The notes: generated from the sequence alone by a model not told the origin. A stretch of 64,000 nucleotides of DNA from an uncultured virus (IMG/VR IMGVR_UViG_2690315748_000003) (IMGVR_UViG_2690315748_000003:1-64000), one strand, 5' to 3'; shown: positions 55,766 through 63,998, numbered from the stretch's first letter. A program made the numbers and translations.

Positions 55766-56212
55766 ATGTTAAAATGGATATTTACCGTGTTGATAACAGT
55801 CCTATTAGCTGGATGCAGTGTACAACAAGACGTTGTAAAGACCACTAAGAGTGACTCTGTAGCCGTTCCGGTAACGCAGATATCTGCCGATACGGTTAAG
55901 CTGGAATTCCCGTCAGCCAAGTACCCGGAAACGGCCCAGCACATCAAGGAGGCCATTGCAGCAGGTAAGTCACCAGTATGCACCATAGATCGCGAAGGAG
56001 CCGATCATAACCGCGACCTGTCCCTAAAGGGTGTGCCCACCAAGAAGGGCAAAGATCGAGATGAATGGCCTATGGCGATGTGTGCGGAAGGTGGAGAGGG
56101 TGCAGACATTAAGTACATAAGTCCAAAGGATAATCGTGGAGCTGGATCGTGGGTAGGTCACAAGCTGGATAACTATGCTGACGGAACAAAAGTTGAATTT
56201 ATCGTGAAATAG
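55766..56212 (+). CDS. NucA/NucB-family DNase lipoprotein
   Basis: LAGC lipobox; [30 protein letters not shown]. Confidence 0.9.
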
Positions 56213-57146: not shown

Positions 57147-57419
57147 CCAGAACCGTCCTCTCGAAATGGTATTATTTTGAACTACCAATCCAGTGTACCA
57201 CAAAATAAGGAATAATTTGTGTGTTTTAAATAATTAAATGGAAAATGACCCTATAGAACTATTTGTCTTACAGTAGTCGACAATATTCAAAAAATATAAT
57301 TTAGTCGAATATCGAATGACAAAAATTTCAAAACTTATTGACAACTGTTAAATTATCGACAACAATAGATTGCAATAATATAAAAGTTTTGGAATTTCTG
57401 TATGAAGGGTGGATATGAC

Positions 57420-58835
57420 ATGAAGCATACACCTACGATTCGAGCAGAATTAGATAGTTATCTAGAACAAAAGGGTTTGAGCTTAGCGCAATTTGGACAA
57501 CTTGCAGGCATGAATAGGGGAATAATAAGTGCTATTGTGTCAGGGAATAAGTCTATGTCAGTTAACCAACTTGACTTAATCACTGAGGCTATGGGTTTAC
57601 CAGAGGGAGAGTTTTACGATCTGTTTATAGAAAACTACATTATTGATCATCCTCCAAATATGAGGCGAATCGAGCCGTTTTTGTTTCGCTGTGCGGAGTT
57701 GGGCAAGTTGGATGCAATCCGTCGAGTACTGGGAGCCATCATGGATAATCTGCTATATTCGCCCAAGCTATTTGAAATCGCAGAAGAATTATTGTCGCAG
57801 GGACGAAATGAGGCTGCTTTGCTGCTTTATGAGGGTGTAGCTGAAACAGAGAGATATCAACATTCTGAACGCTTGGCAGTCTGCCAATATCGTATATTCA
57901 CGATTCAAGTTGGAGACGACCAAAGCCGCAACCACAAGGCAGCTATACTATTTGAGCCTTATGTCGAGCGCCTAGATGAAATAGACCAGCTTGACGCATT
58001 GAAGGACTTAGCTAATGTATACAGGTCTTTGCGTAAATGGGACAAGGTAGACGAAATGGCAAGACAAATGAGAGCTAAAGCGGAAATCCAGTATAGTTTA
58101 AAACACCAAGAAAAACGTGAGTTACGAGATATTGAAAAGAGAACAAGAGGTCCGCTATTTGGATACATTGCTTATGCTGACCTATTGTGTGCAAGTGTTT
58201 GCGAAGCCCGGGGCGATTATCAGCAAGCTCTACAATATACATACGCCTATGCGGATTTAGACTGGGTTAAAGAGACCGACGAGGACACAAGACACTGGGT
58301 AAATTTGTTCAGTCAGTGGGCAGAAGGTAATGCTTACGTATATAAATTGTTGTCAGGAGAAACAAATCTACTGAATGAATATGTTGAATATATTGCTGTA
58401 ACATCAGCCGCTAATGAGAATGAAAAGCTCTCAAAACTGTTGAATGTTATAATCGCAGCAAACCAGTTCAGCATAAATGTAGACGATATACTCAAACGAT
58501 TTGAAAAACTAATCGGGACTTTTTCACAGCAACCATCATCAGATGATATGTATACCCGACAAGTGATACCGGATTATATCGCGTGGTTTGGTTACGAGTT
58601 AGGTTTTTATTATTTACATCGAGGAAAGTACAGTGATGGCTTTAAATATTTAATGAATGCAATGGTAAAGTCACATATAATAAATAATGAAACTTACTTT
58701 ATAAACTGTATGGGGTTATTTGTTCGTTTTCAAGCCCATGCGGTTCCTGAAACTAAAGCTGAGTATTTCAATCTTATTGAAAGGGTGTGGGAAAACAATG
58801 TTCAAAAAAATGGTGCTTTTAATCATTGCGGCTAG
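57420..58835 (+). CDS. RRNPP-type peptide receptor (HTH plus helical repeats), AloR-like
   Basis: N-terminal XRE HTH, all-helical body, overlapping small exported peptide gene. Confidence 0.75.
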   Translation: MKHTPTIRAELDSYLEQKGLSLAQFGQLAGMNRGIISAIVSGNKSMSVNQLDLITEAMGLPEGEFYDLFIENYIIDHPPNMRRIEPFLFRCAELGKLDAIRRVLGAIMDNLLYSPKLFEIAEELLSQGRNEAALLLYEGVAETERYQHSERLAVCQYRIFTIQVGDDQSRNHKAAILFEPYVERLDEIDQLDALKDLANVYRSLRKWDKVDEMARQMRAKAEIQYSLKHQEKRELRDIEKRTRGPLFGYIAYADLLCASVCEARGDYQQALQYTYAYADLDWVKETDEDTRHWVNLFSQWAEGNAYVYKLLSGETNLLNEYVEYIAVTSAANENEKLSKLLNVIIAANQFSINVDDILKRFEKLIGTFSQQPSSDDMYTRQVIPDYIAWFGYELGFYYLHRGKYSDGFKYLMNAMVKSHIINNETYFINCMGLFVRFQAHAVPETKAEYFNLIERVWENNVQKNGAFNHCG

Positions 58836-58920
58836 CTTTTTGTTGATTGTTACTGTGCCGGATCAAGCCTTTAACCACCACCATAGTATTCAGCCTAACG
58901 TTACCATTGGAGGATTTTAA
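58798..58920 (+). CDS. Signalling pro-peptide (AloP/AimP/Phr-like, 40 aa)
   Basis: MFKKMVLLIIAASFLLIVTVPDQAFNHHHSIQPNVTIGGF; terminator follows. Confidence 0.75.
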   Translation: MFKKMVLLIIAASFLLIVTVPDQAFNHHHSIQPNVTIGGF

Positions 58921-60232: not shown

Positions 60233-60601
60233 TCACTTACTCAGTTTATATAGGCAATATTGGTTGAAGGATATGCCTTCTGCTGCTGCACGCTCCATCA
60301 AATGCTTATGCAGGGACTTTGGAGCACGTTGAAGCCACTTGCCGCTATATTGTTCCTCATTTACTGGTTCCGGTATCTCATCACCAAACTCAAGTTTTAC
60401 CTCAAGGTAACCCTCCATAGCTTCTCTAACCATTTTAAGGGCTTCTTCTGGTGTGTCACCATGGCTCTTGCAGCCTTCCAACTCCGCGACTGTAGCTAAG
60501 TGGTAGCTTCCGCTTTCGTCGTTCATATGCTTAATCTGAATTGTATACGGGAGCGCCATGTAATACGCTATGTCTTTTTGGATCGGTTTTTCATTTGCCA
60601 T
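60233..60601 (-). CDS. hicB: HicB antitoxin
   Basis: ELEGCKSHGDTPEEA, YSGKWLQRAPKSLH, EGISFNQY. Confidence 0.9.
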   Translation of the reverse strand: MANEKPIQKDIAYYMALPYTIQIKHMNDESGSYHLATVAELEGCKSHGDTPEEALKMVREAMEGYLEVKLEFGDEIPEPVNEEQYSGKWLQRAPKSLHKHLMERAAAEGISFNQYCLYKLSK

Positions 60602-60648
60602 ATTAATGTAGGCTAGGATAAAATGACTTTGAGAACAAAGGGGAGGTA

Positions 60649-60873
60649 CTACTCCCCGATGATCTCCAGTACGTCTTTGACGTACGCCGCCTTGACGGGT
60701 GTTTCAAAAGGTATCGGGAGCGTGTCTCCTGACTCATTTCGGAATATGTGATGCGAACCCTTAATTCGTACCACTATGTAACCCAGATGATTCAGGACTT
60801 TTGCTATCTCCGCGAACCTAATCCCGTTAGGGCGGTTTTTCATTTTCTCGATGATTTTATCGACCCTAGCCAT
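60649..60873 (-). CDS. hicA: HicA mRNA interferase toxin
   Basis: KGSHHIF motif, upstream of hicB. Confidence 0.9.
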   Translation of the reverse strand: MARVDKIIEKMKNRPNGIRFAEIAKVLNHLGYIVVRIKGSHHIFRNESGDTLPIPFETPVKAAYVKDVLEIIGE

Positions 60874-61007
60874 GTCTCACCTCCTAAATACATGATATCA
60901 CATATGATATCATTATACAAGGTTGTGAAGTGTTTTTTTTGGAATAATATTCTTAATTTTATAAGAACTCATGTTTGTATATAATAGTAACAAAGGAGTG
61001 GATCGCT

Positions 61008-61280
61008 TTGTTACCAGACATCGAGCGTAAGTTACTGCATATTCTTTACAACTTTTTTGCACAGAAACGACGAATGCCAACTATGAATGAGTTGGAGATC
61101 AAGACAGGTAGGAGTGTAACGGATATAAAGGCAGGACTGCTGGCCTTGGAGAAGGATAACTATATTACTTGGGAAGACAAGTCAAACACGCAGCACATTG
61201 TAGTTCTGGAGGGCTGGGAGCGGGGGCAGATCAGACCTATGTCGGCAGGAGATGCCAGTAGATATTTTACGGAATATTAA
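61008..61280 (+). CDS. LexA-N-like winged-helix protein
   Basis: RRMPTMNEL..LLALEKDNYI; SOS-box-like GAACTCATGTTT at 60965. Confidence 0.6.
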   Translation: MLPDIERKLLHILYNFFAQKRRMPTMNELEIKTGRSVTDIKAGLLALEKDNYITWEDKSNTQHIVVLEGWERGQIRPMSAGDASRYFTEY

Positions 61281-61389: not shown

Positions 61390-61722
61390 ATGGGAAAGAA
61401 ACTTGAAGGTAATGGTTTATGGGAGAGTTCACGCATCATTTTGCCCGAGCATAAAGAAGGATACTTAAAACTTATGAAGGATCGCCAGCGGCGCGGTAAA
61501 CCGGAGTTGGATGATCAGGAAGTACAACTGATTGAGCAAGCTCTAATAGACTCTTACAACTCACGCAACGCCGTCACGGTGACCGTATTTAGCCCGTTCG
61601 ATGATACGGACATGACTGGTGTAGTTACGTCTATTAACACCGCCCGTAGGGAGGTAAAACTGTTCCGGGGTGAAGATGATTTTAGTTGGATTAAGCTGGA
61701 GGATATTATATCAGCAGGCTGA
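61390..61722 (+). CDS. YolD-like protein
   Basis: GNGLWESSRIILPEHKE..KPELDDQE. Confidence 0.85.
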   Translation: MGKKLEGNGLWESSRIILPEHKEGYLKLMKDRQRRGKPELDDQEVQLIEQALIDSYNSRNAVTVTVFSPFDDTDMTGVVTSINTARREVKLFRGEDDFSWIKLEDIISAG

Positions 61723-61775
61723 AAATAATTACCTCACATAATACATAAATACTTCCATTTAACATGGTAATTGGA

Positions 61776-61821
61776 TTGCCTCTAACAAGTAACAAATATA
61801 GAATTAAAGCATATTTGTTAC
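61776..61821 (+). promoter_or_regulatory. Promoter and inverted-repeat operator of agr-like operon
   Basis: TTGCCT-17-TAGAAT overlapped by GTAACAAATAT-N11-ATATTTGTTAC. Confidence 0.55.
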
Positions 61822-61846
61822 CAATTATGTGAAGGGGTTATGTGTT

Positions 61847-62479
61847 ATGTGGGAGCCTATTAGGTTCTTGCTTTTCTCAACTGTAGAAACATTTGCGGCG
61901 TTCGTTTTAATGTTAACTATTTTCAGAGTTAGAGCTTTAGACTATGTATGGCCTGCATTGTTTATTGGATTGATAATGAACTTGCAAAGTTTCATTTTAA
62001 GGGAAGAAACTTCTTTGGCTTTTTTTGCTCCAACCATAAACATTATATTGTTCACATTATTGATAACCACTGTTGTTAGGATGCCGATTATCTGGGCAGC
62101 CATCATATCCATTACAGGCACATTTTTGTATACATTATTCCAAGCGGCGATTATATTAATGCTTTTTGGTACCTTGACAACAGAAATGCAGACCTCAGCA
62201 GAAGGATCGTTAGCACAAGCGGTAACCAGTGCATGGGTGTTAGCTATTTCGTGGTTCCTGTATAAATTTAAAATAGGCTTTACAGCAGATTATGAAAATC
62301 TACGTTTTAAGTGGGAGTATGTACTCGTTATTATCTTAATAATAGGAGTATTGGCAGCTTGTGCATTTATGTTTTACGTCAATAATTTCTTTTTGAGTAT
62401 TCTATTTATTGCCTTAGCATCTGCTATGTTTTTGTATTATGCATTAAAAACGGAGCGTGATTACTATAAAAAGTCTTGA
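61847..62479 (+). CDS. Multi-TM protein resembling the AgrC sensor domain, no kinase domain
   Basis: About 7 hydrophobic segments; ends where agrB starts. Confidence 0.65.
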   Translation: MWEPIRFLLFSTVETFAAFVLMLTIFRVRALDYVWPALFIGLIMNLQSFILREETSLAFFAPTINIILFTLLITTVVRMPIIWAAIISITGTFLYTLFQAAIILMLFGTLTTEMQTSAEGSLAQAVTSAWVLAISWFLYKFKIGFTADYENLRFKWEYVLVIILIIGVLAACAFMFYVNNFFLSILFIALASAMFLYYALKTERDYYKKS

Positions 62480-63011
62480 CACCATCGCTCTTAATATTGC
62501 GACTCACATCAAAACAGTTGTACCTGATCATCCTTCATCTATAGATGTTCTAAAACACGGGATAGCCGTTGCGATCAATACATTTTCAATTATTTTACTG
62601 ACTATCGGTATCTCATTTTTTACGGACAGAATGCAGGAAGCTTTGCTAGCGATGATATCTTTTTCAATGTTGCGCCAAATTGTAGGAGGAATACATTTAA
62701 AGAGCAATATAGTGTGTATTATTGTATCTACAGTTCTACTTACTGCTTTATCTTTCGCAAGTTTTAATTACAATTGGATCGTTATTACGTCGATAATAAG
62801 TATTGTGCTTATCTTGATTTATGCGCCGTCGAGGATAGAGGGGAGGACGCGTATATCAAAGCGGCACTATCCGTTGCTAAAGTTTATGGGAGTTGCAATT
62901 GTTGCTCTAAATCTGTGGTTGGCTTATCCGGTAGTAGCTGCCAGTTTTTTCGTTCAGAGTTTAACACTAATAGAAGGAGGTGTGAAAAATGAAGAAAACC
63001 AAACCGAGTAA
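62457..63011 (+). CDS. agrB: AgrB-family peptide-processing protein
   Basis: LRQIVGGIHL..C (catalytic H/C region), IYAPS. Confidence 0.9.
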   Translation: MITIKSLDTIALNIATHIKTVVPDHPSSIDVLKHGIAVAINTFSIILLTIGISFFTDRMQEALLAMISFSMLRQIVGGIHLKSNIVCIIVSTVLLTALSFASFNYNWIVITSIISIVLILIYAPSRIEGRTRISKRHYPLLKFMGVAIVALNLWLAYPVVAASFFVQSLTLIEGGVKNEENQTE

Positions 63012-63135
63012 AGTAAAGGCTAGTATGTATTACAATATTGCTGCAATGTTGACAACACTTGCGGTTGCTTCAGTAAGCACGGCAAGTTTGTCATGGATTC
63101 ACAGTCCCGAACCACCGAAAGAATTGTTAAAGTAA
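62989..63135 (+). CDS. agrD: AgrD-like cyclic lactone autoinducer precursor (48 aa, not in track)
   Basis: AGGAGGTG RBS; ..LAVASVSTASLSWIHSPEPPKELLK. Confidence 0.85.
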   Translation: MKKTKPSKVKASMYYNIAAMLTTLAVASVSTASLSWIHSPEPPKELLK

Positions 63136-63149
63136 GCGGGGAATGTTAA

Positions 63150-63545
63150 ATGCTAAGTTTAACCGTATCGGCAGATCCTGGAGGTATAGAAAAGGGAGAG
63201 AATGTTTTAGTAGACAAAGTCCTTTTCATCTCTAAGGGGAGAAAGCGAGACCAGATACTGGTTCACACATTTGATAAAACATACTATATGGTAGGAACTT
63301 TGAGGCATTGGGAGAATTTTTTGAATAGTAACGGATATCGTTTTTTGAATGTGGATAGAAGTAACACTCTTAATGTAGAAAAAGTAAAGATTGTTAATGG
63401 TATCTTCAAAGATGCTTACTTTGAAGATGATATAACAAAAACATCAAAAAGGTGTCCCATCGCTTATCACCGATTTGATGAGGTTGTTGAAGAAATGGGT
63501 TTCATAAATTCCAAAATAATCTTCACAGGAGTTGCTACGAAATAG
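63150..63545 (+). CDS. Stand-alone LytTR DNA-binding protein
   Basis: ILVHT..GTLRHW..FLNVDRSNTLN; no receiver domain. Confidence 0.75.
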   Translation: MLSLTVSADPGGIEKGENVLVDKVLFISKGRKRDQILVHTFDKTYYMVGTLRHWENFLNSNGYRFLNVDRSNTLNVEKVKIVNGIFKDAYFEDDITKTSKRCPIAYHRFDEVVEEMGFINSKIIFTGVATK

Positions 63546-63785
63546 CGACTCTTTTTTTGTCGAAAATAAGTGTCTTATAATGTCGAATATTAAGAGACGT
63601 TCAGCGCCCGAATTTTTGTTGCCAAGACCCTAATATTGGGATTTAATAGTAGTATAGTTATGTCAAAAATAGATATGTTCGATTATAGACATAATTGACT
63701 TGGGAGATAAAAAAGGGAGGGGAGTAGAGTTATCTGTAAAAAGTATGGTTCAACCATACTTTTATCCGAGGGAGAGCCAACGGGC

Positions 63786-63998
63786 TCACTCAAAGATCAG
63801 TTCGTATAAGTCTTCCATTTTACAATCGAGGGCATAGGCTACGTTAATCATAACATCAGCAGACATTTTATCCTGATTGTTGGCCCAATTGGAAATCAAA
63901 TGTCTGCTGTAGCCGGTGCGTCTAGCAAGATCGATTTGTTTTATACGACGTTCTTCGAGTAGTTCCTTTAATCGGCATCTCCCACGGGAGATTTTCAA
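63786..63998 (-). CDS. XRE HTH regulator
   Basis: IKQIDLARRTGYSRHLISNW..ALDCKMEDLYE. Confidence 0.85.
   Translation of the reverse strand: MKISRGRCRLKELLEERRIKQIDLARRTGYSRHLISNWANNQDKMSADVMINVAYALDCKMEDLYELIFE

Follow-up and report, generated by a model that had tools for sequence, protein, structure and literature searches.

A widespread agr derivative without phosphorelay domains, carried near the attachment site of a Paenibacillus prophage

Results

Organization of the four-gene unit

The window, meaning the whole 64,000-nucleotide stretch of DNA that was analyzed, corresponds to positions 1-64,000 of a contig of 65,641 bases and belongs to a Paenibacillus prophage with an integrase gene at 1-1224, repressor-like HTH genes at 1733-2553, and genes for a major head protein and an endolysin. 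Toward its end lie four open reading frames, all on the plus strand and all present where an earlier note on this DNA had placed them, which encode a membrane protein, AgrB, AgrD, and a LytTR-only protein. The features of this region are as follows.

61390..61722, plus strand: YolD-like gene (PF08863, E 4.4e-23), a frequent upstream neighbor in the close clade; context, outside the operon
61776..61804, plus strand: putative operon promoter, TTGCCT-17-TAGAAT, from a consensus scan
61789..61821, no strand: perfect 11-bp inverted repeat astride the -10 box, a possible operator, partly conserved in relatives
61847..62479, plus strand: membrane protein, 210 aa, seven helices in the AF2 model; by profile matches, a probable AgrC-type sensor domain without kinase
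62457..63011, plus strand: AgrB peptide-processing protease (PF04647, E 6.6e-18), whose start may shift by a few codons
62989..63135, plus strand: AgrD precursor, 48 aa (TIGR04223, 32.4 bits; cut-off 19)
63085-63099, plus strand: predicted ring S33-L-S-W-I37 in AgrD, placed by register with canonical AgrDs
63150..63545, plus strand: LytTR-only protein, 131 aa, no receiver (PF04397, 25.3 bits against 22.6)
63527..63553, plus strand: intrinsic terminator ending the operon
63558..63587, plus strand: two TGTCGAA heptamers (63558-63564 and 63581-63587) that match the Spo0A box consensus
63619..63647, plus strand: conserved promoter-like element, TTGCCA-17-TTTAAT, directed into the XRE gene from its 3' end
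63739..63763, no strand: 12-bp perfect hairpin located between this element and the XRE gene, probably a terminator
63786..63998, minus strand: XRE-family HTH protein, 70 aa (PF13443, E 5.5e-14), convergent with the unit and carried along with it

The membrane gene has its ATG start 9 nt downstream of the ribosome site GAAGGGG and overlaps agrB by 23 nt, if the GTG start of the latter is used; agrB and agrD overlap by another 23 nt, and 14 nt separate agrD from the LytTR gene, so that no space is left for a kinase or a receiver. The coordinates, the overlaps, and the Pfam and TIGRFAM matches agree with the earlier description of a tightly coupled four-gene unit, and the overlap of agrB with the end of the membrane gene bears out the argument that no decayed kinase lies there. 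Promoter-like sites are not enriched in the region (10, against 9.9 in shuffles), and of 136 distinct upstream regions, 18, most of them from the close clade, have the same -35/-10 pair as the operon. Rfam gave no match near the unit. Contigs from two RNA libraries (X2 and X7) cover the unit, and because the assemblies of these libraries amount to ~5.3-5.8 Mb, such contigs may derive from DNA; the raw-read runs X21 and X24, both of which probably come from material without the unit, had no reads on it.

Position in the prophage

The unit lies inside attR, not outside it as a host locus. Identity with the host chromosome up to the end of the contig begins only at ~64,462-64,465 in all four Paenibacillus genomes compared, at the 3' end of the gene that precedes a host gene starting at contig position 64,490, which we take from its motifs to be iscS-like. 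The preceding gene, presumably Rrf2/CymR-like, is an intact ORF in two of the four genomes, whereas the prophage contig retains just its last codons. The start of host identity and these residual codons mark the junction as attR, which places the unit ~0.9 kb inside the phage. The att site itself (contig 64465-64480, beyond the window) holds other inserted DNA in two of four related genomes (L201 and L202) and is thus an integration hotspot.

The closest named relatives of the unit are Paenibacillus ottowii loci with 98% protein identity. A 2.7-kb block at 61345-64088 is 93-94% identical in four prophage loci despite different flanks, from which it follows that the module moves between phages. 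This mobility bears on the idea that the unit is decaying cargo from a host chromosome without any role for the phage, which we consider very improbable. Some relatives are indeed broken or truncated (agrB is split in L016, the LytTR gene is split in L022 and missing in L021 and L023), and the family is common in host genomes; here, however, all four frames, the AgrB triad, the ribosome sites, and the terminator are intact, and five cultured phages share the layout with other ring types, as described below.

AgrB, AgrD, and the predicted peptide

The residues R73, H80, and C87 of AgrB have the spacing of R70, H77, and C84 in the Staphylococcus aureus enzyme, which leaves the triad intact, and the catalytic motif is present in 96 of 102 AgrBs of such units. 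When 105 distinct AgrD motifs were aligned on their conserved Pro-rich tail, position -7 was Ser in 67 and Cys in 13, while canonical AgrDs of Paenibacillaceae had Cys in that column in 12 of 12 cases. The Ser of this unit is in register with that Cys, which supports the ring cyclo-SLSWI, closed by Ser, that had been predicted from clostridial analogy. The remaining diversity includes 22 motifs in which Lys occupies -6 and position -7 is neither Ser nor Cys (L010-L013, L049-L051, L054, L142-L152, L160-L163, and L181), which suggests a different ring closure. Six of the 16 AgrBs that match Lys-type AgrDs miss the standard pattern of the catalytic motif. Ring type clusters on the tree of the membrane proteins, with 12 changes against 26.7 after shuffling, a pattern that shared descent alone may explain.

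Ser lactones are described for Staphylococcus pseudintermedius in PMC3673130 and PMC10482373, and rearrangement of some AIPs to head-to-tail rings in PMC12180512. Since S. aureus AgrB is reported to be unable to process a Ser precursor (PMC10482373), formation of a lactone here would need an adapted AgrB. Pp-AIP, the Paenibacillus peptide of PMC12180512, was considered as the product of this unit and set aside, as it belongs to a different, canonical paenibacillin locus. Taken together, the sequences of agrB and agrD make production of a peptide from this gene pair highly probable.

The membrane protein and its ancestry

The AF2 model of the membrane protein, built with 124 sequences, has a pLDDT of 94.2 and consists of seven helices, after the last of which the chain ends; the multi-TM protein of ~210 aa described before thus keeps its length, and its helix count is corrected to seven by the model. 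Loop charges indicate an N-out, C-in topology in which residues 138-157 form a long, basic loop on the cytoplasmic side. The family conserves the polar residues S11, E14, S48, R52, Q99, and Q124 and a cytoplasmic GF loop, and it has no conserved His and no EExxxR-type protease motif. Paired alignments had an effective depth of 72 sequences, too few for covariation analysis. Searched by phmmer with no filter on length, 1.84 billion representatives yielded 129 relatives, the longest of 242 aa, and a kinase stands at only 3 of 143 loci; the absence of kinase and receiver in cis, correctly noted before for this locus, is therefore also the norm of the family.

Searches for a known relative by other means gave little. 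No Pfam family matched the membrane protein, and DUF3021 and DUF2154 were matched by none of 124 family members at E 0.01. Foldseek of the model against the PDB reached a best E of 0.4, which is no clear match and excludes nothing; a VIA fold search against the PDB was similarly unclear (best Z 8.2, rmsd 3.9, 152 aligned), as was a comparison with viral models, and an Atlas search led to unnamed clusters only. Neither AgrB nor the membrane family retrieved anything in a sequence search of solved structures. When the membrane profile was compared with canonical AgrC of Paenibacillaceae and AgrC3 of Clostridioides difficile, the probabilities were 1-23%, in a setting where true AgrC families likewise failed to match each other. 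A weak search for forms of 425-2000 aa found none and was superseded by a later profile match to long receptors.

That match came from a profile search of 251 Bacilli genomes, 37 of which matched, the weaker tier being near-full-length matches in frames of 418-478 aa. Eighteen loci were fetched (L244-L261), with five weaker partial matches left out, and all 18 encode long receptors that match the membrane profile at the N terminus with 19-59 bits, compared with at most 4.1 bits for the reversed profile. Seventeen of them stand directly before agrB, with agrD next in 14 and a receiver-LytTR gene after agrD in five, and the AgrDs have Ser at -7 in 13 of 14 cases. Through these profile matches to the sensor domains of agrB-linked receptors, the membrane protein is shown to be homologous to agr receptor sensors, and it can be viewed as an AgrC-type sensor stripped of its kinase; the earlier note could only assume this homology.

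Ten of the long receptors have an intact H box and ATPase, and L259, which also lacks agrB, has no phospho-His. The seven receptors L244-L250 are pseudokinases that lack the N and G2 boxes as well as the His of the H box; a Pfam scan of four of them found no ATPase domain, and the seven have the top profile scores (50-59 bits). In four of the seven loci a receiver-LytTR gene follows agrD, in the same order and with its Asp kept. These proteins indicate that agr receptors devoid of catalytic activity are maintained in nature. The midpoint-rooted sensor tree joins the pseudokinases to the sensor-only proteins (SH-aLRT 97), and so does an AgrB tree (94) for which five canonical AgrBs served as the root; in the latter, sensor-only AgrBs form one clade (99), and two long-branched canonical rows, earlier placed among the sensor-only rows, had been dropped from it. 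A loss series from kinase through pseudokinase to truncation is the best tree, and it is suggested rather than proven, given that AU tests rejected no alternative order of events (p 0.37-0.56) and that the receptors were found with the same profile. The literature search, which covered few of the subscription journals, found no description of pseudokinase receptor-agrB-agrD loci or of the four-gene unit.

The LytTR-only protein

The model of the LytTR-only protein resembles the LytTR domain of AgrA (top Foldseek matches, E 8e-6), and its profile matches the structures of AgrA and ComE. In the loops that contact DNA in AgrA, the family has HNS versus an invariant DR. Because of this difference and the weak basicity of the family (median pI 7.8), DNA binding by these proteins is an assumption. 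No direct repeat occurs within 61690-61860, and the best conserved upstream pair of 9-mers (0.62 identity) falls inside the permutation control of 0.45-0.69. Two loci carry proteins of 235-244 aa (L050:597-1331 and L054:589-1296), in which tandem LytTR-like matches replace the single domain. At two others (L069:2330-3099 and L070:2289-3163) a LytTR-only gene occurs without agr genes, adjoining repressor-like HTH genes and accompanied by a convergent small XRE gene and TGTCGAA boxes.

Distribution of the layout

A profile of 124 membrane-family members gave 182 matches in 98 of 151 Paenibacillaceae genomes. The neighborhoods examined were those of 96 family-sample genes with enough flank (the 30 loci listed among the matches, 60 hand-picked across ranks, and a few reached via AgrB), plus other loci, which made 143 distinct membrane genes, 140 of them with at least 1,250 nt downstream. 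Among these 140, agrB followed in 132, agrD in 131, the LytTR gene in 116, and all three in 106; in the family sample alone (n = 96) the counts were 89, 87, 82, and 73. Recurrence of the same gene order at this scale means that the arrangement is not due to chance, and with all three partners so often kept and kinases so rare, it does not hold that homologous loci normally carry a full kinase, a finding which the earlier note had named as evidence that would speak against its reading. Of the 98 genomes that carry the membrane gene, 97 also have AgrB; the membrane gene in turn is present in 97 of 108 AgrB-positive genomes. The kinase-less layout is the commonest context of agrB in the Paenibacillaceae sample. 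Canonical agr loci are separate in the family: the twelve AgrB loci fetched without the membrane gene were all canonical kinase-plus-regulator loci, and the AgrC sensors of such loci do not match the membrane profile.

The rare kinases bear on an alternative in which the sensor binds the peptide and signals via a gene product from outside the unit, for instance a protease or a host kinase with which it pairs, and in which the LytTR protein is a co-regulated effector or competitor; we regard this reading as unlikely. The three loci in question, all of one clade, carry an orphan, intact kinase of ~450 aa, divergent from the unit (L157:3599-4948, L158:3859-5238, and L164:1117-2463), with a Spo0B-type helical domain and a membrane domain of similar size to that of the unit's protein; GHKL kinases are present in 111 of the 151 family genomes and in 67 of the 98 with the membrane gene; and, since receivers at pseudokinase loci keep their Asp, those intermediates may get phosphate from elsewhere. 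The LytTR protein here, however, offers no receiver for phosphorylation, and the divergent kinase has no full-length orthologue in any of five close genomes, where matches begin at residue 176 of 449 at the earliest. Moreover, 31 of the 98 membrane-gene genomes have no kinase match at E 1e-12, a threshold that also misses the divergent kinase of G036. In the complete genome G002, which has an 89%-identical unit, even the best match to an AgrC-type ATPase is not a strong one (E 7.6e-10); it lies in a frame of 586 aa.

An adjacent LytTR gene is missing from 24 of the 140 genes. In four closely related hosts (G001-G004; loci L052, L055, L059, and L065) a chromosomal membrane-AgrB-AgrD copy without LytTR stands beside rsmD and the next housekeeping gene, with a Ser ring, SYVYV, similar to SLSWI, and possibly constitutes a host channel for cross-talk. 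Three more distant rsmD-linked copies retain LytTR, and G003 has three membrane-AgrB-AgrD units and no full-length family LytTR that could be found. L059 has a single frame of 379 aa that unites the membrane gene with agrB.

Such copies would fit another explanation, namely that the membrane protein transduces no signal and is either a partner of AgrB in maturation or export or a decoy for peptides, so that the unit would be an emitter or jammer directed at agr-like systems of hosts or rivals, with an independent LytTR protein. The membrane gene is in fact tied more closely to agrB than to LytTR, as the counts above indicate, and agr maturation in staphylococci requires a second membrane protease, MroQ, according to PMC10482373. 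On the other hand, descent of the membrane protein from a receptor sensor domain and its lack of a conserved His or protease motif speak against such a function, and so does the retention and co-inheritance of LytTR in most copies, where its identity correlates with that of the membrane protein (0.74), although shared descent alone can produce such a correlation. We rate this explanation as improbable, on a par with the partner encoded elsewhere.

The downstream element and the convergent XRE gene

The convergent XRE gene occurs in 33 of 115 distinct downstream regions and in eight of the 58 family-sample units with enough flank. In nine of the 33 XRE-linked regions it is followed by a second XRE gene, of 127-153 aa, in the same orientation, an arrangement also seen in phage immunity regions. 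TGTCGAA boxes are found in 30 of the 33 XRE-linked regions and in 14 of 82 others, and the promoter-like element in 24 of 33 and 4 of 82, for which the association p of 1.5e-13 is overstated because many rows are near-copies. The heptamers match the Spo0A box consensus given in PMC2731898. Binding of the LytTR protein to them was considered less likely than binding of Spo0A because their spacing varies (11, 12, 13, and 23 nt) and many loci have a single box. No conserved small ORF resembling aimX follows the element in 28 loci, and none with a ribosome site does so in the window. The promoter-like element facing the XRE gene is the best local candidate for a target of the LytTR protein.

Discussion

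The unit is a real, intact, and widespread derivative of agr without phosphorelay domains, and it is borne by a prophage here. Compared with canonical agrBDCA, as in S. aureus or the paenibacillin agr of P. polymyxa that produces Pp-AIP (PMC12180512), it shares the R/H/C triad of AgrB, the seven-helix sensor, the LytTR fold, and the position of a five-residue ring in AgrD before a charged, Pro-rich tail, but differs in the absence of the DHp/ATPase domain and of the receiver, in Ser for Cys, and in the order sensor-B-D-LytTR. The Bacilli receptor loci L244-L261 have the homologous sensor before agrB and yet retain a cytoplasmic kinase (ten loci) or a degenerate pseudokinase (seven loci). The LytTR regulatory systems (LRS) HdrRM and BrsRM likewise consist of a LytTR-only regulator and a small, non-enzymatic membrane protein working without phosphorylation, as outlined in PMC6193735, which characterizes LRS by DUF3021 or DUF2154 and by 9-bp direct repeats, spaced 11-13 bp apart, immediately before the -35 of the operon. 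The present unit differs from LRS in having neither DUF nor the upstream repeat, in its membrane gene being first, the opposite gene order, and in a dedicated AgrB/AgrD signal, so that the kinship with these systems drawn in the earlier note does not extend to membership. The unit seems to combine agr-like synthesis of a signal with what is probably LRS-like transduction, and it is a member of neither group.

Related cassettes have been seen in phages before. For the Brevibacillus phages Davies, Emery, and Abouo, PMC3901668 (2014) noted in passing agrB, agrD, and membrane proteins that lack an ATPase domain, and in its account of the cassette the LytTR gene is unmentioned and no test is reported; PMC4168068 and PMC4909266 list an AgrB gene in a table or legend. 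Abouo, Davies, and Emery as well as the Paenibacillus larvae phages Harrison and Paisley share the layout of membrane protein(s), AgrB, and AgrD followed by a gene of 118-122 aa that matches the LytTR profile. The membrane proteins of these five phages match the family profile (E ~1e-30 to 1e-34), whereas their AgrDs have Lys at -6, not Ser at -7, and Davies and Emery carry two membrane genes. In tblastn against cultured phages, the membrane protein and LytTR queries found nothing, and it was the AgrB query that recovered them.

As the receptor comprises the peptide-sensing part only and the regulator the DNA-binding part only, any signal between them would have to pass without a phosphate relay. 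In the mechanism that we propose, AgrB would remove the C-terminal tail of AgrD and close a five-residue ring via Ser33, giving a lactone, or a rearranged cyclic peptide if the N-terminal tail is gone. The released peptide would bind the outer face of the seven-helix sensor, and the sensor would control the co-translated LytTR protein by contact at the cytoplasmic loop 138-157 and the C terminus, in the simplest form by holding it at the membrane until the peptide binds; the LytTR protein might then alter transcription. The role of the membrane protein as a receptor is probable in view of its homology, and direct coupling to the LytTR protein seems rather likely if the rest is granted. As a whole, this reduced agr circuit is the best explanation that we can offer, and we hold it tentatively, at slightly less than an even chance. 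The interpretation given in the earlier note thus stands as to the missing cis phosphorelay, the position relative to attR, the position of Ser, and the sensor homology, and is not supported as to LRS membership, while its suggestion of a phage communication system has become weaker.

The weakening stems from the convergent XRE gene being present in so few of the family-sample units, from several copies standing beside rsmD, and from the 24 genes without adjacent LytTR; as many copies look chromosomal, this is not a phage-only system. The extended arbitrium system aimR-aimP with aimX, aimC, and aimL (bioRxiv 10.1101/2025.11.23.689978) shares with the unit peptide genes in a temperate phage, a downstream transcription unit, and an opposite small single-HTH gene, whereas the unit has a membrane sensor and a cyclic peptide in place of an intracellular RRNPP receptor and a linear peptide, lacks the conserved small ORF, and shows the XRE layout in a minority of cases. 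A bolder possibility, which we consider doubtful, is a second kind of phage communication, derived from agr via the pseudokinase stage, free of phosphorylation, and based on a membrane-sensed cyclic peptide, in which the freed LytTR protein and host Spo0A would set the level of a non-coding transcript running antisense into the XRE repressor gene, and would thereby tie the lysis-lysogeny decision to lysogen density and sporulation state. A role in phage lysis-lysogeny is, in our estimate, similarly unlikely. If the bolder scheme were true, the Ser, Cys, and Lys ring variants would serve as private channels, and near-matching host copies would permit cross-talk.

A kinase and a phosphorylated regulator are the defining parts of agr signaling, and the layout described here drops both, yet is the commonest context of agrB in a sample of Paenibacillaceae, a family of plant-associated and biocontrol bacteria. 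If the unit signals, it represents a peptide-gated sensor with its transcription factor in four small genes, which could be rebuilt in Bacillus subtilis, and it may provide an architecture of the LRS type with the inducing signal that has been missing. From kinase through pseudokinase to sensor alone, the three forms constitute a natural series for studying the loss of phosphotransfer from a two-component system, and the pseudokinase agr loci L244-L250 merit study in their own right.

The accessory region that holds the unit also contains a gene for a NucA/NucB-type nuclease lipoprotein (55766-56212, plus strand), a HicAB toxin-antitoxin pair (60233-60873, minus strand), and a gene for a winged-helix protein just before yolD (60975-61280, plus strand). 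At 57402-58835 on the plus strand lies a gene for a 477-aa protein with HTH and TPR regions by Pfam, and behind it an ORF of 40 aa whose N terminus is hydrophobic (~58798-58920, plus strand), which is the layout of an AloR/AloP RRNPP pair (PMC7425212). This layout suggests that the phage carries a second peptide system 3 kb away, so that the four-gene unit on this prophage could be a communication channel beside an RRNPP-type pair of the same phage. In phage Emery, a similar HTH-TPR gene adjoins the agr cassette.
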